From a virus: DNA of 64,000 nt. This document shows positions 1,222-33,041 of this stretch, piece after piece. A program made the translations under genes and the position numbers. Positions within the stretch are counted from its first letter, which is position 1; each line of letters starts with the position of its first letter. The stretch covers positions 32,001-96,000 of the IMG/VR virus record IMGVR_UViG_3300023179_000037. One strand, written 5' to 3'. The notes beneath the pieces were generated by a model. It worked only from the letters and a program-made list of their open reading frames with translations. It was not told where the DNA came from and searched no databases.

Positions 1222-3843
1222 TTATCTCCTGTATTGTTGATCGACCATTTCCTGATGAAGTCTGTCGCTTGATAGTTGTCTTAATGCCCTTACATTATCC
1301 ACAGTTCGTTGATTTCTGTATATCTCTTTGGGAGCATAAAAATTAACATCTGATAAAGCAACCAAATAGGTATTAAATCCCACTGGCGCTCTGGCCAGAT
1401 TATCTATAGAAACTCCAGCAGCTGCATCGTTGTCTTGAATATTTTGTTTTGTGGTATACTGAGTATTAGTTTGTCTTTCTGGTTCCGGAGTAGTTGGTTT
1501 TGTATCTAGAATGTTGTTTATAGGATTAGTTCTATCGATTAAAAAATTACCTGCAGTTTGAGGAATTTCTAACTGTGTAACAGGAGCTATGGCAACTGTC
1601 TGTGTTGTAACTGGTTGAACTTCTGCACTTTGTATTTGTGGAGGTTGTACTAGGTTTATCTGTATGGCTCCAGCATTGGTAACAATATTTTCTGACTGTA
1701 ATTGTTCCTGTTTATCAGATAACTGCATCATCGGCGGAGTATATTGACTACTTGTTTGTGTTTGAGTTGCAGCAACAGCAGAACTAGTTGGTGGCAGTAA
1801 AGGACTAGCAGTGCCTGTTTCAGATCTTCTTTCCTCGATAATTGGCGCTGTACTCACATTTATATTTACAAAGGTTTGTACTGAACCTGTATTTTGTTGA
1901 ATGGTCTGATTAGATGTATTAAAGATTTGTACCGGATTAACTATGACTACACTAGTATTTGTACTAGTTTGCTCGGTCTGTGCAACAGATGTTATGGGTT
2001 TTAATGATACCATGCCTAAAACTTCTGCACTATTCTGAGTATTTTGTTGGTTATTTACTGTAGCACTGGAATCTGATTTATTGAAAACTATGCTAGTGCT
2101 GCCTGGTGCTGGGCCAACTATAAAGGTTTCAGATTTATTTGTGCCAGCTATGGATTCTGTAGAGCCAGAAGATTTCTGAGAACTTATATCTGAAGAACTT
2201 TTCTGAGCCAAATCCAAAGCCAATGTTTCTGCCTGTTTTATGCCTGCTACAGCGCTTATCTGTGCATTTTCTACAGCAGTCTGACTAGCCTGCAGAGCTA
2301 TGTTGTTCTCTCTTTGTTGATTTTGTTTGATTATAGATAATGCCAGAGCTGTAGAATCAGACTGTGCAGGATTATCAAGTCTTGAAATAGATTTGCCTGT
2401 TGATTCAGATACGCTCATGGTCAATGAAGTTACGGGCGATGGTGCTCCAGGTGGAGGGGCGGAACCTGGAAGTGGGGGAGATCCCAGTGGAGGTTTACCA
2501 GAATCACTATCAATAATGGCTACTTTTATTTTGGGATTAGTAGATTCTGGATCTTCCAGAGGAGCAGGTATTTTTCCTGCAGGAGGCGGAGTGGATGCAG
2601 TAATAATTTCATTCAATGATGTTTGTTGAATTTTATTTTGTTCGTCTGCCAATCGTTTTATTTCAGCATTAAAGTTGCTGCAGTTTGGACTATATAATGG
2701 CTGTGTATAACAGGGATCTGGACTCCATATGGGTTTAGTATAGGGTGCTATGCCCATGTTGTCGCCATATCCTCCCCATACATTCCAACTTATTCTGCCC
2801 ATGTTAAGACTATTCTGCGATTCAACAAAAAGAACTCGTCCAGATCTGCTGCCCCCACTGTAATTTCCTTCGACCCACCAGCTATCATTGTACAGACTAG
2901 TACCAAATTTATCGTTTATATTAAAACTAACATTTCTTCCATTGGCGCCACTGGAAGCCCAACAAATTATAAAACTAGCAGTACAATAATCACCAGCATA
3001 ATACCCGAATCCATAGTCAAAACCATGTAACTGTACACCGCCACCTATGTGAGGAAGTGTTTTAGCAATATCATAGTTCCACCAAAAGGTTGGACTCAAA
3101 GATCCTTGTACAACACTGCTAAATCCCGGACAACCTGAACTAAAAGCAGGATTTAGTATGCAGGGATCTACACTGTAATTCACATGCATGTAGGCATCTT
3201 TTACCTGCGGTCCATAGCATTGGTTTCCAGAACAGGCCCAAAATCCTGTATCCATGCCAGTGATGCTTAGCTTGGCTGTGCCCACTGTTGACAACATCTT
3301 GGCCCCGGAAAATGTATAGGTTTCGGCCAAGGATTGCCAGGTAGGATTATAAGGGGGATTTCCGTCATTGATATTTTTTAAACCAAGCTGATGCAGTTGT
3401 GAATGCTCTATGGCTCCGGACTTGTTAAAATATTCAAAGGTTGCACTCAGATTATCCTGCATTCCAGATACATCTTCACAATATCCACCGATTTTATTTG
3501 CACAGGGAAATCTATACTGAAAACCATAGCTTATTCCAGTAACAAAAATAGCGCTCGTGTTCTGATAATTAACTGGAAAATTACCTGCATTTACTGTTTG
3601 CGATACTGTGCTGTTGGAATAAGAAAAAGTATAACCATCGGTCACAAAACTACCAGGCATTCCGCTGACATTCCAGCCATTGTTGGTTTTTAGGCTACTG
3701 TCATAGTTTAGTAAATTGCCGGTCTGTAGATCTATGCTATAACCGCTGGGCGTATTAATGGATCCTGAACTGGTAGCCTGAGCCAGAACAGCAGAGCTCT
3801 GCGTCAGCAACAATAAGCACAGTATAATCTTTAAAAAATTCAT
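1222..3843 (-). CDS. Large secreted protein with Cys-containing repeated modules and Pro/Ser/Thr/Gln-rich C-half
   Basis: Sec-type signal peptide; two DPC-x3-P-x2-S-x2-C motifs; low-complexity linker. Confidence 0.7.
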   Translation of the reverse strand: MNFLKIILCLLLLTQSSAVLAQATSSGSINTPSGYSIDLQTGNLLNYDSSLKTNNGWNVSGMPGSFVTDGYTFSYSNSTVSQTVNAGNFPVNYQNTSAIFVTGISYGFQYRFPCANKIGGYCEDVSGMQDNLSATFEYFNKSGAIEHSQLHQLGLKNINDGNPPYNPTWQSLAETYTFSGAKMLSTVGTAKLSITGMDTGFWACSGNQCYGPQVKDAYMHVNYSVDPCILNPAFSSGCPGFSSVVQGSLSPTFWWNYDIAKTLPHIGGGVQLHGFDYGFGYYAGDYCTASFIICWASSGANGRNVSFNINDKFGTSLYNDSWWVEGNYSGGSRSGRVLFVESQNSLNMGRISWNVWGGYGDNMGIAPYTKPIWSPDPCYTQPLYSPNCSNFNAEIKRLADEQNKIQQTSLNEIITASTPPPAGKIPAPLEDPESTNPKIKVAIIDSDSGKPPLGSPPLPGSAPPPGAPSPVTSLTMSVSESTGKSISRLDNPAQSDSTALALSIIKQNQQRENNIALQASQTAVENAQISAVAGIKQAETLALDLAQKSSSDISSQKSSGSTESIAGTNKSETFIVGPAPGSTSIVFNKSDSSATVNNQQNTQNSAEVLGMVSLKPITSVAQTEQTSTNTSVVIVNPVQIFNTSNQTIQQNTGSVQTFVNINVSTAPIIEERRSETGTASPLLPPTSSAVAATQTQTSSQYTPPMMQLSDKQEQLQSENIVTNAGAIQINLVQPPQIQSAEVQPVTTQTVAIAPVTQLEIPQTAGNFLIDRTNPINNILDTKPTTPEPERQTNTQYTTKQNIQDNDAAAGVSIDNLARAPVGFNTYLVALSDVNFYAPKEIYRNQRTVDNVRALRQLSSDRLHQEMVDQQYRR

Positions 3844-5426
3844 TAGTTATACTCGCCCGATGTATAACCCTTTACTGTTTTTGCTTCGGCGGGCTGAGTT
3901 TTATAATCATACTGAGGTATTTTTTCGGGATTGGCTTGCCATAAATCTTTGGCCTGATCACCTATTTTTCCTTCATAAGGACAGGGAGTACCAGCTGCCA
4001 TCATGGCTTCCCATACTCTGCGATCCTGACACATGGTAGCCACAGCAGCAACCTTCATGCCCATGTCAAATAAGGTTTTACTAAGCTTTAATCTTTCGCA
4101 GTTTAAATCTCGTTGAGTACCACCCAATGCCATACCGAACATCTGAGTTTGCAGCGCACCGCTGGCACCTGTAGTGCACAGATCAGCACCCCCGCCAGAC
4201 ATCATGGCAGGAGCTATGGCTGTTGGGGGCGGCTGTATGACACGCTGTGTAATAGTGGTTTCGTTGATGTTTCTATTGGTCATGTCTCCAGTCTGGACAT
4301 TCTGATTAATATTAGTGTTGTTATTCTGATTTATATTTGTGTTGGTTGATGTAGCAGTGGACTGATTAATGTTGCGATTGGTCATGTCTCCAGTCTGGAC
4401 ATTGGTATTATTATTGTTGGTTGTAGCTGTCGTCTGGTTAATGTTGCGATTGGTCATGTCTCCAGTCTGAACATTGTTGTTGGTGTTTACATTGTTGGCT
4501 GTACTGGTGCTATTGTTGTTATTATTATAGGTCATGGTGCCAGTATTGACGTTATTATTGGTGTTAACACTGGTGGAGTTATTGGTGTTTATGCTGGTAC
4601 TCGTCGATGTATTGATGTTGCGATTGGTCATATCTCCAGTATTAATATTATTATTTGTAGCAGTGCTGGTACTGGTATTGACATTGTTGTTATTGTAGGT
4701 AACAGTTCCAGACATAATAGTTCTATTGGTACTGTCACTAGTACTGGTATTTTGATTGATGTTGGTTATTTGTCCAGACTGAATATTGTGATTTGTATTA
4801 ACATTAGTCGCAGTACTGGTGCTGGTATTTTGATTGATGTTAGTTATCTGCCCAGACTGAATATTATTGTTGGTATTTACATTGTTATTTGTACTGGTGC
4901 TAGTACTGGTATTTTGATTGATGTTGGTTATCTGCCCAGACTGAATATTATTGTTGGTATTTACATTGTTGTTTGTACTTACACTGGTGCTGGTTGATGT
5001 GTTGTTATTGTTATTGGTCATGGTACCAGTATTTACATTATTATTGTTGTAGGTAACCGATCCACTCATATTATTGTTGTTGTTATTGGTTACTGTGCCG
5101 CTCTGCACATTATTATTGGTATTTACATTTGTGCTTGTACTGGTGCTGGCGTTGACATTATTGTTGGTATTAGTACTAATACTGTTTACTGTACTGTTAT
5201 TAGTATTTGTACTTGTACTAACACTGGTATTATTGGTTTGTACAGAACTGGTGCTGTTAGATGTCGAATTGGTATCTACAAGACTTTTGGAATCGTAACT
5301 GCCTTGGTTTATGGGGTTAGTAGTACTGGTAGTAGTTCCGTTAGATGTTGACTGAGTACTGGTGTTTTGCGCTGATGCTATCGCCGTAAACATAATTAAA
5401 AGCGCTGCTAGAGCCGCTTTTAACAT
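3843..5426 (-). CDS. Secreted Asn/Thr-rich repeat protein with Cys-rich C-terminal domain
   Basis: Signal peptide ending ASA|Q; about 350 aa of N/T/S repeats; C-terminal PPPTAIAP..DLC..NCERLKL..MCQD..GTPCP domain; SD AGGAG. Confidence 0.75.
   Translation of the reverse strand: MLKAALAALLIMFTAIASAQNTSTQSTSNGTTTSTTNPINQGSYDSKSLVDTNSTSNSTSSVQTNNTSVSTSTNTNNSTVNSISTNTNNNVNASTSTSTNVNTNNNVQSGTVTNNNNNNMSGSVTYNNNNVNTGTMTNNNNNTSTSTSVSTNNNVNTNNNIQSGQITNINQNTSTSTSTNNNVNTNNNIQSGQITNINQNTSTSTATNVNTNHNIQSGQITNINQNTSTSDSTNRTIMSGTVTYNNNNVNTSTSTATNNNINTGDMTNRNINTSTSTSINTNNSTSVNTNNNVNTGTMTYNNNNNSTSTANNVNTNNNVQTGDMTNRNINQTTATTNNNNTNVQTGDMTNRNINQSTATSTNTNINQNNNTNINQNVQTGDMTNRNINETTITQRVIQPPPTAIAPAMMSGGGADLCTTGASGALQTQMFGMALGGTQRDLNCERLKLSKTLFDMGMKVAAVATMCQDRRVWEAMMAAGTPCPYEGKIGDQAKDLWQANPEKIPQYDYKTQPAEAKTVKGYTSGEYN
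4743..4990 (-). repeat. Coding tandem repeat, about 78-84 nt unit (TNNNIQSGQITNINQNTSTSTS...) x3
   Basis: Near-identical units ...ggtattttgattgatgttggttatctgcccagactgaatatt...; related QTGDMTNRNIN units at 4260-4640. Confidence 0.85.
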
Positions 5427-5533
5427 GAAGTTCTCCTTTTAAGTTAGTAATGAGCAACGTCACTTTAACAAAATCAGAGTTCAACAATAAATATTAATGC
5501 ACATACACCATAAGTATTTTGATCAAACTTCTA

Positions 5534-5562
5534 TTGACATCCCTGTCTATTTTATTTATAAT
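5534..5562 (+). promoter_or_regulatory. Consensus sigma70 promoter for gene 43A
   Basis: TTGACA 5534-5539, 17-nt spacer, TATAAT 5557-5562. Confidence 0.85.
5553..5560 (-). promoter_or_regulatory. T4-type late promoter for the minus-strand operon
   Basis: TATTTATA on plus = TATAAATA on minus, about 127 nt upstream of the 5426 start. Confidence 0.6.
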
Positions 5563-5585
5563 TATAGAGTCTATGGAGATTCTTG

Positions 5586-7046
5586 ATGCGCTTTTATACT
5601 AATGTAGTAAGTTTTGGTAACAAAATACTTGTTCGAGGAATAAACAACGGTAAAAGAGTACAAGATCGAATTGATTTCGGCCCAACTCTTTTTATTAGAT
5701 CAAACAAATCATCTGAATATAAATCCTTATATGGTCAAAACTTAGAATCAATTGCCTTTGAATCAATTAATGAAACTAGGGATTTTATAAAGCGATATAA
5801 AGAAGTAAAAGATTTCCCCATATTTGGTAATACTAATTTTGCATATCAATATATTACTAAAGAATTTCCTGAAGATATAGAATTCGATATTAGTCAGATA
5901 AAAATATGGACAATCGATATTGAAACTTCTGCAGAATTTGGTTTTCCCGATGTTTCTGATCCGATTGAAGAACTATTACTAATTACCATTCAAGATTTTA
6001 ATACTAAAGAAATAGTTTCGTTCGGCACTAGACATTGTAATTCTATAAAAGAAAATCATACATATCATCGCTGTAAAGATGAATATGATCTCTTTAAGAA
6101 ATTTATTGACTTTATGTCTAACGACTATCCTCATATTATTACGGGTTGGAATATTGAATTTTTTGACATTCCTTATCTATGCAATAGAATTCGTAAGATT
6201 CTCGGTGAGGATATTTTAAAACAATTATCTCCCTGGAATGTGGTCAATCAAAGAGAAATTAGTAGATTCAAAAGTATAGAAACAGTTTTTGATATTTTGG
6301 GGATATCTATTTTAGATTATTTAGATTTATATAGAAAATTCACATATACTGCACAAGAATCCTACAAATTAGATCACATTGCTAAAGTAGAACTTGGAAA
6401 AGAAAAAATTGACTATGGTGAATACGATTCGTTTAGAATGTTTTATAAAAATAATTGGCAAAAGTTTGTTGAATATAACGTAGTTGACGTTGAACTTGTA
6501 GATCAACTTGAAGATAAAATGAAGTTGATTGAATTGATTCTTACAATGGCATATGATGCTAAATGTAATTACGTTGATGTATTTTCAGCAGTAAGGACAT
6601 GGGATTGTATTTTGTGGAATCATCTTTGGAAAAAGAACATTGTTGCTCATCAGAGGGATGAGTCTAGAAGTGGTAGACAAATTGAAGGGGCATTTGTACA
6701 AGAACCCAAACCCGGTAAATATGATTGGGTGGTATCTTTCGATGCAACAAGTCTATATCCAAGTATTATTATGCAGTATAATATGTCACCCGAAACAATT
6801 ATGCCGGGAAAAGAAGATGTAACAGTTGATACATTAATTAATAAAGAGCATTCACTTGATACATTGAAAAAAGATAAACTTTGTATGGCAGCAAATGGTT
6901 ATAAGTTTAAAACAGATAAGCAAGGTATTTTTCCTGAAATTGTACAAAAATTATTTGATGACCGGCAAAAGTATAAAAAATTGATGATTGCCGCTCAAAA
7001 AGAGATGCAGTTAATAGAAGAAGAAATACGAAGAAGATCGTCATAA
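5586..7046 (+). CDS. 43A: DNA polymerase family B, N-terminal subunit gp43A (exonuclease, motif A, first fingers helix)
   Basis: Exo motifs DIET, GWNIEFFDIPY, YNVVD; motif A SFDATSLYPSII; ends in fingers region; SD GGAG before ATG 5586. Confidence 0.95.
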   Translation: MRFYTNVVSFGNKILVRGINNGKRVQDRIDFGPTLFIRSNKSSEYKSLYGQNLESIAFESINETRDFIKRYKEVKDFPIFGNTNFAYQYITKEFPEDIEFDISQIKIWTIDIETSAEFGFPDVSDPIEELLLITIQDFNTKEIVSFGTRHCNSIKENHTYHRCKDEYDLFKKFIDFMSNDYPHIITGWNIEFFDIPYLCNRIRKILGEDILKQLSPWNVVNQREISRFKSIETVFDILGISILDYLDLYRKFTYTAQESYKLDHIAKVELGKEKIDYGEYDSFRMFYKNNWQKFVEYNVVDVELVDQLEDKMKLIELILTMAYDAKCNYVDVFSAVRTWDCILWNHLWKKNIVAHQRDESRSGRQIEGAFVQEPKPGKYDWVVSFDATSLYPSIIMQYNMSPETIMPGKEDVTVDTLINKEHSLDTLKKDKLCMAANGYKFKTDKQGIFPEIVQKLFDDRQKYKKLMIAAQKEMQLIEEEIRRRSS

Positions 7047-7238
7047 TATTCAAAAAGCAATAGAGAAAAGAATTGGAAGTAAGGATTCCCTCGAAACCAT
7101 CTTTAAAAGAGCAAACTCGGTGAAGAATTTTTATTCTAACAATGTGAGCATTTTAAAGGACGTACCAAAATCAGCAGAACATAAACCGCCATCAATATGA
7201 AAAGATGGCATTTTGAACGTTGCAAAAGGAAAATATGA
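7042..7238 (+). pseudogene. Collapsed homing-endonuclease remnant between 43A and 43B
   Basis: Frame 1: KAIEKRIGSKDSLETIFKRANSVK...LKDVPKSAEHK (NUMOD3-like); frame 2: AINMKRWHFERCKRKI* (typical phage HE C-terminus) whose TGA overlaps the 43B ATG; no start codon or nuclease domain. Confidence 0.65.
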
Positions 7239-8342
7239 ACCTTAAAAATCTTTCTATGGAGGAACTGCAAGCGCTTCGAAAAGACACTGAGAAGAAAATT
7301 TCTAGTTTGAATAATTATCAAATGGCTAGAAAAATTCAACTCAATAGTCTTTTCGGTGCGCTTGGTTAACTAAGGTAACGAATACTTTAGATTTTATGAT
7401 GATAGAATAGCAGAAGGCATTACAATTACTGGGCAGTATACAATTAGGACTGTAGGCAAAGCTCTAAATGAATATCTTAATAAGGTATGTAGTACTAACG
7501 ACTATACTTATTCTTTTTATTCAGATACTGATGCATGTTATATTACGCTTGATCCCTTAGTGCAAAAATTTTATAAAGATATGCCTAAGGACAAAGTTGT
7601 GGAAATTCTTGATAAAATCTGCGATGAAAAGATAGAAAAGGCAATCAATAAGGCATGCGATGATCTCATGTCTTATACCAATTCCTTTGAACGAAAGGTA
7701 TACTTTAAACGAGAAGTAATTGCTGATAGAGGTATTTGGGTAGCAAAGAAAAGATATGCTTTGAATGTCTATAACAATGAAGGCGTACAGTATAAAGAGC
7801 CAAAGTTAAAAGTAATGGGTTTAGAAATTGTTAGATCTTCCACTCCAGAGCCTGTTAGAAAGGCATTAAAAGAAGCAGTAAATTTAGCATTGACTAAAAC
7901 AGAATTACATATTCAAAAATATATTAAAGATTTCGAAGAGGAGTATAAGACACTTAAAGTAGAAGATATTGCTTTTCCTAGAAGTGTAAATGGTATTAAC
8001 AAATATAGTGACAAGTCAAGTATTTATAGACAAAGTACTCCAATGCACGTAAGAGGTTCTCTTTTATATAATTTCCATTTAAAGAATAAAAACTTAGATA
8101 AAAAATATGAGTTGATTAGAGAGGGAGACAAGATTAAATTTATATATTTGAAAGAACCAAATACTATAGGAGAAAATTGTATTGCATTTATTTCATCCAT
8201 ACCCGACGAATTTCAATTGACACAGTATGTCGATTATAATATAATGTTTGAGAAGTCTTTTCTTGAACCATTAACAACTATTTTAAATGGTATTGGTTGG
8301 AATGCTAAACCAATAGCAACTTTGGAAGGTTTGTTTGCATAG
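7235..8342 (+). CDS. 43B: DNA polymerase C-terminal subunit gp43B, interrupted by a 10-nt coding gap (join 7235-7366 + 7377-8342, 365 aa)
   Basis: SD AGGA, ATG 7235; MNLKN...RKIQLNSLFGALG then TAA; +1 frame continues NEYFRFYDDRIAEGITITGQ...YSDTDA (motif C)...KKRYAL...KVMGLE...LEGLFA (clamp-binding tail). Confidence 0.85.
7361..7376 (+). other. Candidate translational bypass site (take-off GGT 7364-7366, stop TAA, landing GGT 7374-7376)
   Basis: Removing TAACTAAGGT restores the conserved GALGN; hairpin CUUGG-UUAA-CUAAG. Confidence 0.6.
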
Positions 8343-8351
8343 GAGTTTTTT

Positions 8352-9413
8352 ATGTCTCTATTAGAAAAATTAAAAAAGAATTCTACAATAAAGGAAACAG
8401 AAGTATTGGACAAGTCCAAATTCTTTTTGAAAAAGGATATGATTCAAACTTCTGTACCAATGATAAATGTTGCTTTATCGGGATCTTTAGAAGGAGGATT
8501 GTCGCCGGGACTTACAGTATTTGCCGGCCCATCCAAGCATTTTAAAACCGCGTTTTCTTTACTATGTGCAAAGGCTTATTTAGACAAATATGAAGATGCT
8601 ATTATTTTATTTTACGATTCTGAGTTTGGTAGCCCTCAGTCTTATTTTGATAACTTCAGTATCGACACATCCCGTGTTCTTCATACGCCCATAACTGATA
8701 TTGAGCAATTAAAATTTGATAGTATGCAACAGATCAATAATATTGAGCGCGGAGATCACGTAATGATTGTAGTTGATTCTGTAGGCAATCTTGCATCCAA
8801 GAAAGAAGTAGAAGATGCTTTAGAAGGCAAATCGGTTGCGGACATGACACGTGCTAAACAAATGAAATCTTTGTTTAGAATGATTACCCCACATCTAACA
8901 ATCAAAGATATCCCAATGGTTGTAGTTAACCACACATATTCGGAAATAGGATTATTTCCGAAACAAATTGTTTCCGGTGGCACTGGATTAGTTTACTCAG
9001 CAGATAATATTTTCATTATTGGACGCCAACAAGAAAAAGATGGTGCTGATGTAGTAGGGTTTAACTTTATTATAAATGTAGAGAAATCTAGATTCGTCAG
9101 AGAAAAATCTAAAATTCCGATCGAGGTATCTTTTGAGGGTGGTATCAGCACATGGTCGGGTCTACTTGATGTTGCTATGGATGGTGGATTTGTTGTTAAA
9201 CCTAGTAACGGTTGGTATTCGCATAAAGGGACTGAAAAGAAACATAGACATAAGGATACGTATACTAAAGAGTTTTGGATGCCTATTTTAACTAGCAAAG
9301 AGTTCCGAGATTATATAGAATCAAGATTTAAAATTGCTGGTACAGATATGTTACAAACAAGATTAACAGATGAGGATTTAGACCAGGAGTTTGATAATGC
9401 TAGTGAAGTATGA
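8352..9413 (+). CDS. uvsX: UvsX RecA-like recombinase
   Basis: Walker A GPSKHFKT, YDSEFG, DSVGNLASKKE, SGG; T4 synteny 43-uvsX-40-41. Confidence 0.95.
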   Translation: MSLLEKLKKNSTIKETEVLDKSKFFLKKDMIQTSVPMINVALSGSLEGGLSPGLTVFAGPSKHFKTAFSLLCAKAYLDKYEDAIILFYDSEFGSPQSYFDNFSIDTSRVLHTPITDIEQLKFDSMQQINNIERGDHVMIVVDSVGNLASKKEVEDALEGKSVADMTRAKQMKSLFRMITPHLTIKDIPMVVVNHTYSEIGLFPKQIVSGGTGLVYSADNIFIIGRQQEKDGADVVGFNFIINVEKSRFVREKSKIPIEVSFEGGISTWSGLLDVAMDGGFVVKPSNGWYSHKGTEKKHRHKDTYTKEFWMPILTSKEFRDYIESRFKIAGTDMLQTRLTDEDLDQEFDNASEV

Positions 9414-9690
9414 ACCATGGAATATTGAAGATACTACTTGGGGTATAGAAATTGTAGAAGGAGAATTCAAGGGAACAAAAATTAGTATTAATGATATTTC
9501 TATGCCAAAAGAAAATGGGGATGAGATGTTATTAGATTTTAATTTTATAAAAATACCTGAGGGAAAGACTGATCAAGATATGAATTCCGATGAATTTAAT
9601 ATTACAATAAATTTTATTCTCAACGATATCTTAACTAAAGCTATAGATGAATTTCAAAATAGAAACCGTAATACTTCAAAATCTGATTAA
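9397..9690 (+). CDS. 40: gp40-like head vertex assembly chaperone
   Basis: Position between uvsX and 41 with overlaps on both sides; size; SD AGGAG before ATG 9397. Confidence 0.55.
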   Translation: MLVKYEPWNIEDTTWGIEIVEGEFKGTKISINDISMPKENGDEMLLDFNFIKIPEGKTDQDMNSDEFNITINFILNDILTKAIDEFQNRNRNTSKSD

Positions 9691-10276
9691 TAACGAAGAA
9701 TACATGCGTAAAGTTATTCCGTTTTTAAAACGAGAATATTTTACTAGTAATATGGAGCAACAAATATATGATGAGGTAAAAAAATTTATAGATGAATACA
9801 ATACGTTGCCCAGCAGAGATGCGTTAGTTATTGCTTTTCAAAATAATAGAAACCTAAATGAAGAGCAATACAAAGAGGTAATAGAATATGTAAATACACT
9901 TGAAACGACAAACCACAATAAAGATTGGCTCTTGGATCAGACTGAAAAATTTTGCAAAGACAAAGCAATTTATAATGCAATACTGAGCTCTATTTCCATT
10001 ATTGATGGTCGTAATAAAAATTTATCTACAGATGGAATACCAAGTTTATTACAAGAAGCTCTTGCAGTATGTTTCGATAATAATGTAGGGCATGACTATA
10101 TTGACAATGCGAATGCTAGATATGATTTTTATCATAAGGTAGAGTCAAGAATACCCTTTGATCTTGATTATTTTAATAAGATCACTAATGGTGGTCTTCC
10201 TAATAAGACATTAAATGTAGTTTTAGCTGGGTGTGTACACCCCAATACTAAAGTTAGAATTCGTTTTAAAAAGTAG
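9647..10276 (+). CDS. 41: Replicative helicase gp41 N-terminal part fused to a 14-aa N-intein
   Basis: gp41-like FCKDKAIYNA, VGHDY, NKITNGGLPNKTLNVVLAG, then CVHPNTKVRIRFKK*. Confidence 0.92.
   Translation: MNFKIETVILQNLINNEEYMRKVIPFLKREYFTSNMEQQIYDEVKKFIDEYNTLPSRDALVIAFQNNRNLNEEQYKEVIEYVNTLETTNHNKDWLLDQTEKFCKDKAIYNAILSSISIIDGRNKNLSTDGIPSLLQEALAVCFDNNVGHDYIDNANARYDFYHKVESRIPFDLDYFNKITNGGLPNKTLNVVLAGCVHPNTKVRIRFKK
10232..10273 (+). mobile_element. Split intein N-fragment (14 aa)
   Basis: Begins with Cys1 inside the Walker A loop; block A-like CVHPNTKVRI; stop follows immediately. Confidence 0.85.
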
Positions 10277-10406
10277 CACCAAGGCGATATCCTTAATTGG
10301 TTTTCTCGTCCTCTTTGAACCCAAATAGCCCGTTTCTCTTTAGAAAAACCATGAAAACCTATTTTATTATCCCTGCAATATTCTATTTGTATTTTTAGGA
10401 GTTTTA
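10277..10406 (-). pseudogene. Possible remnant of an inverted free-standing endonuclease between intein halves
   Basis: Minus-strand open stretch QIEYCRDNKIGFHGFSKEKRAIW resembles phage HE DNA-binding repeats; lies where fractured gp41 loci carry endonucleases. Confidence 0.4.
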
Positions 10407-10793
10407 ATGAAAGATTGGATAGTAAAAGATGTAGAAATTCAAGAAATAAACAATCTTTTGCAACAAGGATATGAAGTTCAAGTTGATAGCCCCGATGGTT
10501 GGATAGATGTAGATCTATTTGTCGATAAGGGAATGTGGCCAGAATATGTTCTAAATACATCTAATGGATATATTGTTAAATGTAATGAAAATCATTTATT
10601 TGAAACAACCTCTGGTTGGGTAAGAGCCAAAGAATTATTGGATTTCCAATCTTCTCAGGTCATAACTGTTCTAACAGATAAAGGATGGCTTACTGCAAAT
10701 ATTGAAAAAACGAGTAACCTTATTCCCATAGTAGATATCAGAGTCAATCATCCAAACCATAGGTACTATACCAATGGAGTAAGTTCGCATAAT
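10407..10793 (+). mobile_element. Split intein C-fragment (mini-intein, no endonuclease)
   Basis: Terminal His-Asn (CAT AAT 10788-10793) followed by Thr+1; block B His present. Confidence 0.88.
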
Positions 10794-11609
10794 ACAGGTG
10801 TTGGAAAATCTTTATTTATGTGTCACGTTGCTGCATCTATTTTATCGCAAGGTAAAAATGTTCTGTATATTACTTTGGAGATGGCAGAGGAAAGAATTGC
10901 CGAAAGAATAGATGCCAATTTAATGAATATAACAATGGATCAATTAAAAGATTTACCTAAGCCGCTATTCACTAATAGAATAGAAAAAATACGAAATAAA
11001 ACTAATGGTAAATTAGTTATCAAAGAATATCCAACTACTAGCGCACACGTGGGACATTTTAAATCTTTACTTAACGAATTACAACTAAAAAGACAATTCA
11101 AACCCCATATAATTGTTGTAGATTATTTAAATATCTGCGCATCATCTAGATTTAAAGCTGGTGCTAATATAAATTCCTATACATTAATTAAATCTATTGC
11201 TGAAGAACTAAGAGGATTGGCAGTAGAAGAGAACTTACCCATTTTATCTGCGACTCAAACTACCAGAGGCGGGTATGGAAATACTGACGTTGAACTTACA
11301 GATACTTCAGAATCATTTGGTCTTCCTGCTACAGTTGATCTCATGTTTGCTCTTATTGCAACTGAAGAACTAGATCAATTAAATCAGATAATGGTCAAAC
11401 AACTTAAAAATAGATATAACGATCCAACAATAAATAAAAGATTCGTAATAGGTATTGATAGAGCAAAAATGAAATTATATGATTTGGAACAGACAGCACA
11501 AAAGGGTTTATCTGATTCTGGTATTAAGTTAGATGAGAATAAACTTGAGCAATATGATTTAAGTAATGTTTTTAAAAAATCCAGAGATTTTTCTGGTATC
11601 AAAATATAG
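10407..11609 (+). CDS. 41: C-intein (129 aa) fused to gp41 helicase C-terminal part
   Basis: SD AGGAG; Hint motifs KCNENHLF and IVDIRV..HRYYTNGVSSHN, then TGVGKS, ITLEM, VVDYLNIC, SESFGLPATVD, KQLKNRY. Confidence 0.92.
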   Translation: MKDWIVKDVEIQEINNLLQQGYEVQVDSPDGWIDVDLFVDKGMWPEYVLNTSNGYIVKCNENHLFETTSGWVRAKELLDFQSSQVITVLTDKGWLTANIEKTSNLIPIVDIRVNHPNHRYYTNGVSSHNTGVGKSLFMCHVAASILSQGKNVLYITLEMAEERIAERIDANLMNITMDQLKDLPKPLFTNRIEKIRNKTNGKLVIKEYPTTSAHVGHFKSLLNELQLKRQFKPHIIVVDYLNICASSRFKAGANINSYTLIKSIAEELRGLAVEENLPILSATQTTRGGYGNTDVELTDTSESFGLPATVDLMFALIATEELDQLNQIMVKQLKNRYNDPTINKRFVIGIDRAKMKLYDLEQTAQKGLSDSGIKLDENKLEQYDLSNVFKKSRDFSGIKI

Positions 11610-11617
11610 GAGGCAAC

Positions 11618-11773
11618 ATGCTTTTTCCGCACCCAAACAAACAAACAGTCCAAGAACAAATTGATGAAGAAAAATTACTTCTTAAAGAAGTATTAAATGA
11701 TAAACCAAAAAAAATTAAGAAGATAGAAGAAGAATTATTTAATCAAGAACCATCTTCTATATTAGATAAATAA
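11618..11773 (+). CDS. Hypothetical 51-aa protein
   Basis: SD AGGAGG; MLFPHPNKQTVQEQIDEEK... (manual translation). Confidence 0.55.
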   Translation: MLFPHPNKQTVQEQIDEEKLLLKEVLNDKPKKIKKIEEELFNQEPSSILDK

Positions 11774-11779
11774 TAGTAA

Positions 11780-11857
11780 CAGAAAGCTTGGGAAATAGAA
11801 GCATTTAAGTTAGAGGGGGAAATGTTAAATTATTTTAGGAGAAATACTGGTACATAA
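11780..11857 (+). pseudogene. Possible C-terminal fragment of a phage Zn-metallopeptidase-like gene
   Basis: Startless QKAWEIEAFKLEGEMLNYFRRNTGT*; WEIEA resembles the PWEIEA motif that follows HExxH in T4-like peptidases. Confidence 0.35.
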
Positions 11858-11873
11858 TTAAGAAAGGATTAGT

Positions 11874-12035
11874 ATGAACTCAATAACATTTACGTTAATT
11901 GACCTTGGACAAATTGCTTTACTATTGGCAGCATGTTATGGATGTTATATTAAGGGAGTTAATAAGGGAATAGGCGATACTTTAGAGTTCTTTGAGGAAC
12001 AAGGATTAATAGAAAAAGAAGAAATAAGCGAATAA
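11874..12035 (+). CDS. 53-aa small membrane-associated protein
   Basis: SD AAGGA; MNSITFTLIDLGQIALLLAACYGCYIKG... Confidence 0.6.
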   Translation: MNSITFTLIDLGQIALLLAACYGCYIKGVNKGIGDTLEFFEEQGLIEKEEISE

Positions 12036-12078
12036 TAGTTACGATGTTGTTTTTTCACAACACTAAGTACCCGAGCAT

Positions 12079-12107
12079 TTGACTCGGGTTACTTTTTCTA
12101 TTATAAT
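12079..12107 (+). promoter_or_regulatory. sigma70 early promoter, probably leaderless transcript
   Basis: TTGACT-17-TATAAT; ATG at 12114; inverted repeat ACCCGAG/CTCGGGT overlaps the -35. Confidence 0.75.
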
Positions 12108-12113
12108 AATGAT

Positions 12114-12494
12114 ATGAACTTAGAAATCGGAAAATTCGTAGAGCTCAAAATACGTCAATATTCTTATCTTTATAAGAATGAGGGGTGGATTGAGAAAACT
12201 ATAAAAGGACAAATCGTTCCTAATCCCAAATGGTTAGACGACGATTACGTTAGTATTTTGACAGATCAATCACATTTTCCTGTTTCAATGGTTTTTAAAC
12301 AAAACATTATAGGGCTAGATATAGCAAAAGGTAGAACTGCTAGTAGATTTTTTAATGTAAAATCAAAAAAGACAGGTAAACAATATAAAGTAATTTCAAG
12401 TAATGGTTCAGTTACTTGTGATTGTATTGGTTTTCAGTATCGTAAGTCATGTAAGCATTCATTGGCTGTAAAGAAATTTATTCAAAATGCTTGA
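12114..12494 (+). CDS. SWIM zinc-finger protein
   Basis: C-terminal CDCIGFQYRKSCKH (CxC...CxH). Confidence 0.75.
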   Translation: MNLEIGKFVELKIRQYSYLYKNEGWIEKTIKGQIVPNPKWLDDDYVSILTDQSHFPVSMVFKQNIIGLDIAKGRTASRFFNVKSKKTGKQYKVISSNGSVTCDCIGFQYRKSCKHSLAVKKFIQNA

Positions 12495-12519
12495 CATTGT
12501 ATACAAATGAATTTATAAT
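12491..12519 (+). promoter_or_regulatory. Consensus sigma70 promoter
   Basis: TTGACA 12491-12496, 17 nt, TATAAT 12514-12519. Confidence 0.85.
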
Positions 12520-13793: not shown

Positions 13794-13876
13794 GGGGATG
13801 TGGTGAAATTGGTAGACACACCTGGTTTAAGCCCAGACGTTTCGACGTGAGAGTTCGAATCTCTCCATCCCCACCA
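13794..13876 (+). tRNA. tRNA-Leu(TAA)
   Basis: GGGGATG/CATCCCC acceptor, D-loop TGGTAG, anticodon TAA, long variable arm ACGT-TTCG-ACGT, TTCGAAT T-loop, encoded CCA. Confidence 0.92.
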
Positions 13877-13890
13877 ATAGGTTTCTTTGT

Positions 13891-13964
13891 GCGACCATAG
13901 CTCAGAGGTCAGCAGCGCCCGGCTCATAACCGGTGGGTCCCTGGTTCGAATCCAGGTGGTCGCA
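13891..13964 (+). tRNA. tRNA with CAT anticodon (Met or Ile2), no encoded CCA
   Basis: GCGACCA/TGGTCGC acceptor, CCGG-CTCATAA-CCGG anticodon arm, CCTGG-TTCGAAT-CCAGG T-arm; irregular D-stem. Confidence 0.75.
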
Positions 13965-13980
13965 CAAAGAAACTTATAGG

Positions 13981-31700: not shown

Positions 31701-33041
31701 ATTATTGGTGGTGGAACAGTAGGTGTAACTGATAGAATTATATCTAATAGATATCCAAAAACAGCAAATGCAACCATTAATAATGCAGCTAATTTATTGT
31801 ATTTAAATAATACTTTTATATCATCAGAAGTAGTAGCTTTTGTAAATCAAACTTATCCTTCTTTTACGTACAATGCTAATACTTGTGCAAGAGATGTTGG
31901 TTTTATTGTAGATAGTATTGTATTTGATTTAAGACATGGTGGAAATAGACAATCCATTATGTCTGGTGTCTATTATTATAACTTTAGCGCTAGTAATACT
32001 CAAATAAATGATCAAATTGTTCAAACAGGTGAAGCTTATAGATTTATTGGATCCATAATTGATGAAATAGTAACTGCAAATACGATTACAAGAACATTTC
32101 AAACTGCAGTAACTCAAAACACTACAGCAGCACCTGCGGCAACAACTTCACAATCTGCATATGTGGCAACTGATATTGATTTGATTGCGAATATAATAAC
32201 AAATGGTCCAAATGTCGCTCCCCCGAGACGTCCAATCACTTACAAAGAAAATATAAACATAAATGATAATAGAGCTGCTTTATTAATAGATGCAAATAGA
32301 CAATTTATTATAGAAGAAACTATAGGTTACGTTAATTCTGCATTTTTTAGTCCTCCTTATCAAGATGCAGTGAAACAAAATACGAATTCCGCCCCAGCTT
32401 CAACTACAGCAATTGCCAATGTAATATTGAATAATATAAATCTTATTACTAATATCATTTCAAATGGGCCAAGTGTAGCACCTGAAAAAAAACCAATAAG
32501 TTTAACGGCAAATACGGAACCGAATGTTATAAATGCAGCAAAAATACTTTATAACAATAGAGACTTTATCAAGGCAGAAGTTTTAGAGTACACCAATCAA
32601 AATTGGGCAAATCTTGGAAATAATAATTATGTATTCTATACTGTAAATGCATCAACTCCACTATTAAGTAATGTAGTTCATGGAAATACATCTGTTATTT
32701 CTTTACTTGAAACAATAAATGATACCTTTAGAATTGGAACTCGATTATCCTTTCATCAGCCAAGTTACATTTCCGGCTCAGGGCATACGTTTGAATACGT
32801 GGGTGCAGGTGATTCTTTATCTAATTCTTTACCATTTTTGGGGGGCGTACCTATTCAAGAAAATGAAGTAATCTCAGAAAGGGGCGGCTCAGTTTATTAT
32901 ACTAGTACAGATCATAAAGGGGATTTTAGAATCGGAGATAATCTATTGATTAACAGAACAGATGGTACTATTTCGGGAAGAACTTTTGTTAAAGCTTTGT
33001 TTGCAACTATGACCCCATATATATTAGCATTAGAAGGGTAA
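28737..33041 (+). CDS. Large virion structural protein with pectin-lyase-like region and internal repeats
   Basis: YV..GND.NDG..P, SPYIQNC; four C.RD.G.I.D repeats in two ~240-aa units. Confidence 0.7.
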   Translation: MADLKVSELESANVVQRGDLLYIVQDGTSKNVNAGILFASLSDPRLAGNVQLGGNVQVLSTSGVISLTVPRTELIGGNVANTTAITDGTALPATIFMYTPNVSGTGLGFTFTEGVSFTKNIVVSYANNKIKLNGYFPNEWAGSGVNKPFPSGLTFVKGANYVFNVSDPTNIGNTLSFSTSIDGTNTLGTEYTANVVRNGTAGSAGANITFIPANVRIDDGGLKYIDIAKGTDGQLKIITLTSTSGGSYSLSSNILNNLNIKFTKSGETAFLMYSGNAWILVGATPGFQTTFSGTSDDVPEGSKLYFTNARARAAISAFDNSIIYDSVSGTIKANAAFLGNISISSIATTDEIPEGPIALANLNYGRSYFTNARAIAAVTDVIRSQTANLNAVANITFANVANVIYVTCTGNDANDGRSIQKPLANIHTALARSKAWDTIKVSSGQYVLYNQPVTIPTRVSLVGDSLRTTSVYPYQANVDMFYVNNGCYVTGFTFRNHVSPAAVFSYNPNGSAGFIVTSPYIQNCSSITTTGCGMRVNGNYVSGLRSMVVDSYTQTNEGGIGIHMLNRGYTQLVSVFTICCNIAILCENGGFCSITNSNSSFGTYGLVARGVSFPLYFGTLLYQDGNNLTLGNLNQKPNYGDAVLIADFDQSKCSRDTGLIVDALLFDLAYNGNTEATFAGLQYFAQSSSAIPGQATETINALNYAKRLATNVILNIAVTPTYQLANSQVIVAGPVGGQDGVYKINNEFYLITDIIQNGTVGVTDRIIPNKYPANSAPNINLSANILYANKNFIQSEVVAYVANVYPAFSFNTAKCFRDVGYIIDSIVFDLRHDGNKQAITSGVYYYNFNANVSQINNQVVQTRYAYNYIGSLVTNLIQNKSVANYNEAKCRRDTGLIVDSLVIDLAYQSNTQAVFAGLQYWAQSSSAIPGQATETIAAIGYAKNLATNVLANVTITNLRQTNVAQVRGLGGTAIEKANVATNFDLVANIIGGGTVGVTDRIISNRYPKTANATINNAANLLYLNNTFISSEVVAFVNQTYPSFTYNANTCARDVGFIVDSIVFDLRHGGNRQSIMSGVYYYNFSASNTQINDQIVQTGEAYRFIGSIIDEIVTANTITRTFQTAVTQNTTAAPAATTSQSAYVATDIDLIANIITNGPNVAPPRRPITYKENININDNRAALLIDANRQFIIEETIGYVNSAFFSPPYQDAVKQNTNSAPASTTAIANVILNNINLITNIISNGPSVAPEKKPISLTANTEPNVINAAKILYNNRDFIKAEVLEYTNQNWANLGNNNYVFYTVNASTPLLSNVVHGNTSVISLLETINDTFRIGTRLSFHQPSYISGSGHTFEYVGAGDSLSNSLPFLGGVPIQENEVISERGGSVYYTSTDHKGDFRIGDNLLINRTDGTISGRTFVKALFATMTPYILALEG

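Follow-up and report, generated by a model that had tools for sequence, protein, structure and literature searches.

A split DNA polymerase gene with the remains of a homing endonuclease and a 10-nt coding gap, a candidate site of ribosomal hopping, in an uncultured T4-like phage

The window analyzed here is a stretch of 64,000 nucleotides (nt), positions 32,001 to 96,000 of the 112-kb virus record IMGVR_UViG_3300023179_000037 from IMG/VR, whose completeness is estimated at 66%. In this window gene 43, encoding the family B DNA polymerase (PolB), is split into two cistrons, 43A and 43B, and 43B is interrupted by 10 untranslatable nt directly after its motif B codons. Judged by homology, the 188-nt spacer between the cistrons is the wreck of a GIY-YIG homing endonuclease homologous to seg43(25)/helc25 of Aeromonas phage 25. 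The reading that we favor, and hold to be probable, is that ribosomes hop from GGU to GGU across the gap and that the gap protects this site against the nuclease. The nearest named relatives of the window were T4-like cyanophages at about 50% amino acid identity. A megablast search of the region against 50,697 phage records gave no match, so the window has no close named relative; the phage belongs to an uncultured T4-like clade. The gene 43 region is laid out as follows.

5586 to 7046, + strand: gene 43A, coding for the N-terminal domain, the exonuclease domain and the first half of the fingers of a family B DNA polymerase
7047 to 7234, + strand: spacer between 43A and 43B, 188 nt
7235 to 7366, + strand: 43B exon 1, 44 codons, with the N-terminal extension MNLKNLSMEELQALRKDTEKKISSL and the homology region with motif B NNYQMARKIQLNSLFGALG
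7367 to 7376, + strand: coding gap, 10 nt, TAACTAAGGT, with a frame-0 stop, a +1-frame stop and the candidate landing codon GGT
7377 to 8342, + strand: 43B exon 2, 321 codons plus the stop (8340-8342), coding for the rest of the palm (motif C, YSDTD) and the thumb

The open reading frame (ORF) of 43A spans 5583/5586-7046, and its 3' end reads ...QKEMQLIEEEIRRRSS before the stop. It matched the Pfam profiles DNA_pol_B_exo1 (E 3.8e-20) and DNA_pol_B (E 7e-19), and its alignment to RB69 gp43 reached residue 504, near the tip of the fingers; 43B covers the rest, with exon 2 aligning to RB69 gp43 residues 572-887 (E 7e-60). The two cistrons jointly cover a complete PolB; it is broken in the fingers domain, as the original prediction had it. 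The last ~14 codons of 43A (EMQLIEEEIRRRSS) differ from the KYEETKDKK... of unsplit relatives and are a cassette-borne C-terminal extension. 43B starts with an ATG at 7235, upstream of which lies the ribosome-binding site AAGGA (7227-7231). Exon 1 of 43B reads through the motif B stretch KIQLNSLFGALG, ends in GGT (7364-7366), the proposed take-off codon, and is 46% identical over 41 amino acids to 43B exon 1 of phage 25. No second polB gene was found in the 112-kb record.

The gap begins 132 nt after the 43B ATG and follows GALG, in agreement with the prediction of a coding gap about 130 nt downstream in a highly conserved motif. Its local sequence is GGT TAA C TAA GGT AAC, in which a frame-0 stop TAA (7367-7369) is followed by a +1-frame stop TAA (7371-7373) and by a second GGT (7374-7376); neither the gap nor the sequence after it offers another cognate triplet. 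The conserved NEYFRFYD...YSDTD resumes in the +1 frame at AAC 7377, and in RB69 numbering the gap lies between G571 and N572, directly after the motif B residues. Deleting exactly 10 nt joins both parts of 43B in frame. Because stops occupy both usable frames, readthrough or a simple frameshift cannot join the parts, and a +1 or -2 frameshift and stop readthrough were thereby ruled out; an alternative genetic code was rejected as well, since it cannot repair a 10-nt shift. The sequence has features expected of a bypass cassette: an untranslatable gap whose incoming frames run into stops, take-off and landing codons that match, and a protein that is restored exactly. Among the five lineages that carry the cassette (described below), the 321 codons of exon 2 showed pairwise ratios of nonsynonymous to synonymous substitution (dN/dS) of 0.04-0.09 at synonymous divergences (dS) of 1.15-2.5. 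Ratios this low at dS above 1 indicate that the frame after the gap is translated.

Translation of exon 2 is thus clear and the mechanism is inferred, which leaves room for two routes that dispense with a hop. The 10 nt could be excised from the mRNA by a protein endonuclease and a ligase, or termination at the UAA could be followed by reinitiation, yielding a three-piece polymerase of gp43A, a 44-amino-acid motif B peptide and a C-terminal piece. A Shine-Dalgarno (SD)-like UAAGG does lie within the gap, and in family B polymerases a fingertip split by termination and reinitiation is tolerated, as described for Pfu polymerase (PMC3061061). However, the exon 2 frame contains no ATG, GTG or TTG before GTG 7560, which is past catalytic motif C, and a second start codon ahead of motif C was ruled out on this ground. 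The position of the break, directly after the motif B residues, also speaks against separate pieces, and on either route it would be an unexplained coincidence that the GGT codons match and that GALG-N is restored exactly. With regard to excision, Rfam returned no RNA family and no Intron_gpI for window positions 5000-12500 at E<=1. We know of no bacterial or phage system that splices a 10-nt segment from mRNA. Taken together, we regard a route without a hop as very unlikely. As far as the sequence can tell, a hop is the only single event that would join both frames.

The remains of the nuclease fall into two blocks that extend slightly beyond the spacer.

7027 to 7185, + strand: nuclease remnant block 1, in the frame of 7018, corresponding to about residues 124/136-177/182 of the intact GIY-YIG nuclease
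7185 to 7238, + strand: nuclease remnant block 2, in another frame, the last 17 codons TAINMKRWHFERCKRKI plus TGA

A tblastn search with the 60-amino-acid open frame 7018-7197 against the 50,697 phage records matched 11 records (E 1e-7 to 2e-3), and all 11 matches were to a GIY-YIG nuclease annotated between 43A and 43B of Aeromonas phages, which rules out a chance likeness. Positions 7045-7185 were 51% identical to residues 136-182 of helc25 from phage 25, and block 1 was 57% identical (E 9e-12) to residues 124-177 of the intact nuclease of a related contig, L084. In block 2, positions 7197-7232 (MKRWHFERCKRK) were identical to helc25 residues 254-265 at 9/12 positions (75%), and the block was 78% identical to residues 243-265 of the L084 nuclease. 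Block 2 includes the 43B ribosome-binding site AAGGA, and its TGA (7236-7238) overlaps the 43B ATG as ATGA. These results bear out the claim of two out-of-frame endonuclease-like pieces in the 188-nt spacer with a remnant stop overlapping the 43B ATG, and the proposed translated search of the spacer did reveal homology to a GIY-YIG nuclease. Only the label 'NUMOD3-like' was not confirmed: Pfam and PHROGs gave no endonuclease match for the spacer peptides, whose homology was seen only by tblastn against phage genomes; a NUMOD3 match in the L084 nuclease was weak (E 0.025) and lies in the part deleted from the window.

With its N-terminal GIY-YIG catalytic domain (residues 1-~123) lost, and about 70 residues from the interior gone too, the window copy is a pseudogene of a nuclease of the seg43(25)/helc25 type and not a working member. 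What ties it to the family is the homologous C-terminal DNA-binding part, the place between 43A and 43B, and the stop adjoining the 43B ATG.

For comparison we used 77 cassette-free IMG/VR relatives of the C-terminal part of the polymerase (88-48% amino acid identity). The frame was continuous at the gap point in 77/77, with GAWG, GAMA or GALG followed directly by N or S, and in the relatives with enough upstream DNA gene 43 was a single ORF of ~830 codons, except possibly in L060 and L070. In L070 (71-1429), a distant gene 43 relative with a contig edge upstream, a separate ORF (MFRDVKDMTTEELEKELQ...) starts ~131 codons before motif B, a position different from that of the split in the window. 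When the DNA was aligned to the relatives, the window had ~310 nt in place of their 51 nt (KYEETKDKKYQKDIAKF) and exactly 10 extra nt after GALG; by this alignment, the gap and the split are insertions in the window.

An exact-pattern scan of IMG/VR found the same 18-mer in three further contigs, and a metagenome scan added one, for a total of five with the window. The gap contigs were assembled independently; the four others, from at least three other metagenomes, carry the identical 10 nt despite only 73-87% DNA identity to the window. The gap was present in 5/5 cassette contigs and in 0/77 relatives without the nuclease scar, which confirms the anticipated co-occurrence. In L084, an intact 265-amino-acid GIY-YIG nuclease, encoded at 1698-2495, lies between 43A and 43B together with the same gap and no intron, so that a relative with an intact ORF between the cistrons does exist. 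This nuclease has a GIY-YIG domain (PF01541, E 3.7e-6), ends in ...AINMKRWHFERCKRKI with its stop overlapping the 43B ATG, and is 43% identical to helc25 over the full length (E 8e-72).

The spacers of the five contigs measure 838, 188, 116, 82 and 81 nt (81-82 nt in L085 and L134). Apart from L084, the cassette contigs hold independent deletion remnants of the nuclease, and the 3' end of the nuclease with the 43B ribosome-binding site is kept in all five. The nuclease has decayed in four of the five known lineages with the gap kept, and the decay of the nuclease assumed in the original prediction is seen in the window, where the catalytic domain is lost. Relatives of the L084 nuclease occurred at 46 further IMG/VR loci (L087-L132), one of which was the L085 contig again. 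None of the remaining loci was a gene 43 cassette; in L088, a distant polB is encoded by the opposite strand.

One could also suspect a dead gene, or a gap that arose as an artefact of assembly or sequencing. The record was assembled from a metagenome, its estimated completeness of 66% leaves a second polymerase elsewhere conceivable, and the gap occurs in 0/77 of the closest relatives. Against this stand the same 10 nt in five independently assembled contigs that are 13-27% diverged, the low dN/dS downstream at saturated dS, and the single polB in 112 kb. Owing to the purifying selection downstream, the lack of a start before motif C and the lack of a second polB, a pseudogene or an artefact is excluded for practical purposes, and we find this explanation scarcely credible.

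The five cassette-bearing contigs have a tract of low divergence in common.

6866 to 7415, + strand: low-divergence cassette tract, common to the five cassette-bearing contigs

Within the tract, identity was 88-100% for exon 1 and the surroundings of the gap and dropped to 61-94% near the margins; in the flanks it was 48-93%, mostly 60-85%. Among the five cassettes dS in exon 1 was 0-0.35; between the window and L085 there were 0 differences in the 132 nt of exon 1, and dS in exon 2 was 1.8. In a maximum-likelihood tree of the C-terminal part, cassette-bearing genes were interleaved with cassette-free ones, and the cassette-free L002 was sister to the cassette-bearing L085 (support 99/98). The tree requires at least 2-3 gains or losses of the cassette, and no bootstrap tree allowed a single origin. 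The cassettes have GALG in motif B, as in T4-type phages, and their near neighbors have GAWG, GAMA and the like. Because the tract is far less diverged than its flanks and the cassette is scattered on the polymerase tree, we conclude that the cassette moves horizontally. That the gap travels with the nuclease or with the scar of it, in a unit that moves, is characteristic of a cassette of the mobA/gene 60 type. L084, with the nuclease intact, and L134, which has lost the nuclease and kept the gap, share one metagenome, Ga0214917, and immunity may therefore still matter after loss of the nuclease.

We propose that a mobile homing-endonuclease cassette invaded gene 43 of a T4-like phage. The cassette would have contributed a new short tail of 43A, a free-standing GIY-YIG nuclease gene, a new 43B start with a 25-codon head, its own copy of the motif B codons and the 10 untranslatable bases after GALG. 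gp43A and gp43B would be produced as separate proteins that come together at the tip of the fingers. During synthesis of gp43B, the ribosome would stall when its A site holds UAA and its peptidyl-tRNA(Gly) is paired with GGU 7364-7366; this tRNA would then unpair, the mRNA would slide by 10 nt, and re-pairing would take place on GGU 7374-7376. Decoding would resume at AAC and give the conserved GALG-NEYFRFYD, with the junction peptide ...SLFGALGNEYFR. In the DNA, the same 10 nt would break up the target at which the nuclease would cut cassette-free phages; carriers would therefore be immune, and the whole unit would be copied into naive genomes. The decay of the nuclease in 4/5 lineages would have come later.

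Two hairpins predicted around the gap recall the 5' and take-off stem-loops of T4 gene 60.

7299 to 7332, + strand: predicted upstream hairpin (weak evidence), 9 bp, UUUCUAGUU/GGCUAGAAA, 32-65 nt 5' of the take-off codon
7352 to 7382, + strand: predicted take-off hairpin (weak evidence), CUUGG/CUAAG, with a UUAA loop containing the stop codon and the landing GGU at the 3' foot

In the consensus that RNAalifold gave for the five cassettes, the pairing of the upstream hairpin survives three one-sided U-to-C changes, and there is no compensatory pair. A 6-bp pairing (UUGCCA/UGGCAA) is possible at the same position in the cassette-free L001 (3965-4000) and in other cassette-free relatives, so the upstream hairpin may not be specific to bypass. 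The take-off hairpin has a folding energy of -9.3 kcal/mol (z -1.6), 13/200 shuffles fold equally well, and its sequence is invariant in the five contigs. Folds of 81-141 nt around the gap were no better than shuffles (z -0.7 to -0.8), the local structure being marginal.

Several points weigh against the proposal of a hop with self-immunity. The predicted hairpins are not significant (z about -0.7 to -1.6) and show no compensatory changes, the latter because the sequences hardly vary. Likewise, since all five gaps are identical, there is neither covariation of the take-off and landing codons nor variation in gap length, and a search of IMG/VR and the JGI metagenomes with a degenerate pattern (stop-started, 4-33 nt, after motif B, in this clade) returned only the 10-nt version. 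The low divergence of the tract could reflect constraint at the nucleotide level in place of recent transfer. A 10-nt hop would have to be efficient without signals like those of gene 60, and for these phages both the hop and the immunity are predictions from sequence.

The closest known relative of the window cassette is the gene 43 cassette of phage 25. It comprises split 43A and 43B, the free-standing GIY-YIG nuclease seg43(25)/helc25 and a group I intron, 25.g43B, that has no nuclease of its own and is predicted to rely on the free-standing one; gp43A and gp43B co-purify with polymerase activity (PMC2988022, PMC2993671). The cassette is present also in Aes508, phiAS4 and the E. coli phage vB_EcoM_G2285. 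Phage 25 and Aes508 have their nuclease between 43A and 43B, the latter annotated as a joined feature, and the intron scored 64-73 bits against the group I intron model of Rfam; the G2285 intron is taken from its own record annotation. In all three, phage 25, Aes508 and G2285, the intron sits inside the Leu codon of GALGN (GCG T/TG GGT AAC, with the slash at the intron, placed by protein continuity in phage 25 and Aes508), 1-5 nt from the possible placements of the 10 nt in the window. The nuclease of phage 25 reportedly cuts intron-free 43B.

The window and phage 25 thus have in common a homologous nuclease, a split at the fingertip, a nuclease stop adjoining the 43B ATG, and an interruption at the Leu/Gly codons of GALGN. 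Exon 1 of 43B is short in both (44 codons in the window, 56-57 in phage 25-type cassettes) and has a related head, LSxxELQ. They differ in hosts and lineage, the window coming from an uncultured clade with cyanophages as its nearest named relatives, and in the interruption itself, which is 10 nt long and non-self-splicing in the window, whereas phage 25-type cassettes carry a ribozyme of ~340 nt. Collaborative homing involves a self-splicing group I intron at the nuclease target, and at the presumed target the window has only 10 nt. Because 10 nt cannot self-splice, the interruption in the window would be handled by the ribosome and not at the RNA level.

Two of the homologous cassettes showed further features. 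In G2285 (L139, MK327933.1, 1407-5208) the annotation of the polymerase reads 'unable to determine intron/exon boundaries', and the nuclease is a seg43-type GIY-YIG enzyme 43% identical to the L084 nuclease; as this phage has both a seg43-type nuclease and the intron, the Aeromonas cassette occurs also in a Mosigvirus. In Aes508 (L083, 4465-7426), 43B is broken further: past the group I intron it contains a split intein, and an ORF for a VSR-like endonuclease separates the intein halves, so that, according to the record annotation, one polymerase gene harbors three kinds of selfish element.

Aeromonas phage 44RR reportedly has neither an intron nor a gap at GALGN. Its split gene 43 has only a short intercistronic untranslated sequence (PMC2988022), and the short spacers without a nuclease in L085 and L134 (81-82 nt) and in the window (188 nt) are like it. 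The series of spacers shrinking from 838 to 81 nt suggests that such spacers are nuclease scars, and points to a way in which intercistronic untranslated sequences may arise in split phage genes.

The intron of the homologous cassettes raises the question of whether the 10 nt were ever selected for immunity. An ancestral cassette with nuclease and group I intron might have lost the intron imprecisely and left the 10 nt as a tolerated scar, with a hop rescuing enough polymerase. The intron site lies only 1-5 nt away, the gap starts with TAACTAA and the introns of phage 25 and G2285 start with TAAACTAA and TAACCAAATAAC, respectively, and the four of five lineages without the nuclease still keep the gap. 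On the other side, L084 has the gap, an intact nuclease and no intron, so that the gap coexists with a presumably active nuclease, and any 10-nt insertion at the target is expected to disturb recognition, whatever its origin. Besides, the 7-nt likeness is short, AT-rich and composed of stop codons, and the insertion points are not exactly coincident. We therefore judge a scar that was never selected for immunity to be unlikely.

The likeness in the first 7 nt (TAACTAA) to the 5' end of the phage 25 intron would also fit a related idea, in which one nuclease lineage acts on a single polymerase target that phages shield in two ways, some with a self-splicing intron and others with a 10-nt hop element, the hop element being the stump of the intron. 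We put this forward tentatively, as a possibility that is on balance doubtful. If true, translational bypass could have evolved from an intron by a direct route, and the gap of T4 gene 60 might plausibly have arisen in this way.

The original prediction regarded the locus as a polymerase analog of the T4 gene 39-mobA-gene 60 element, which contains a 50-nt translational bypass (Bonocora et al. 2011, PNAS; Manning & Atkins 2022, bioRxiv 10.1101/2022.08.31.505936). In the latter work the cassette is termed unique, bypass cassettes are reported only in topoisomerase genes with gaps of 20-50 nt, the insert in gene 60 blocks cutting by MobA, and bypass outlives loss of the nuclease (bioRxiv 10.1101/2022.08.31.505936). 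The analogy stands insofar as the architecture matches this description point by point; the closest relative is nonetheless the homologous seg43(25) cassette and not mobA. As in the T4 element, an essential replication gene is split by a nuclease, ORF1 has a C-terminal extension and ORF2 an N-terminal extension, and ORF2 has its own copy of the target region. In both, the gap lies ~44-46 codons into ORF2, after a Gly take-off codon followed by a stop, the take-off and landing codons match, the gap outlasts the nuclease, and the insertions are recent and repeated.

Unlike the T4 element, the window cassette has a GIY-YIG nuclease and not the HNH enzyme MobA, lies in polB and not in a topoisomerase gene, and has a gap of 10 nt instead of 20-50 nt. 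We found no homology to MobA (HNH) or to the gene 60 bypass sequence; nascent-peptide, hairpin and SD signals in the window would be putative, as is the hop. On these comparisons, the window cassette appears to be an independent variant analogous to the mobA/gene 60 kind and not a member of the MobA family. Most likely ribosomes hop over the 10 nt, which would make this a second, independent version of the T4 gene 60 trick.

Short non-programmed tRNA hops over a stop or hungry codon have been described in E. coli (Weiss et al. 1987; O'Connor et al. 1989; Gallant & Lindsley 1998). In them, a peptidyl-tRNA re-pairs with a matching codon a few nt past a slow A-site codon, as proposed here. Those hops are of low efficiency and occur in synthetic or stress contexts, whereas here a hop would be obligatory for an essential enzyme and conserved in five lineages.

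Programmed translational bypassing has been demonstrated for very few genes, and an unrelated nuclease family appears to have reached the same solution in a DNA polymerase, where the gap is only 10 nt long and obvious signals are few. The window cassette may thus offer a minimal natural substrate for asking what the ribosome requires for a hop. Because it is homologous to the nuclease and intron cassette of phage 25, hiding an immunity insert at the RNA level and at the ribosome level would be directly comparable. Annotation pipelines will call such polymerases broken.

Elsewhere in the window, two phage tRNA genes, Leu(UAA) and Met(CAU), are located at 13794-13965, and the window encodes no tRNA-Gly gene. 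Upstream, gene 43 is adjoined by an ORF of 527 amino acids on the - strand (3843-5426), which has a signal-peptide-like start, a stretch of ~350 residues made up almost entirely of Asn/Thr/Ser repeats, and a C-terminal domain with Cys.

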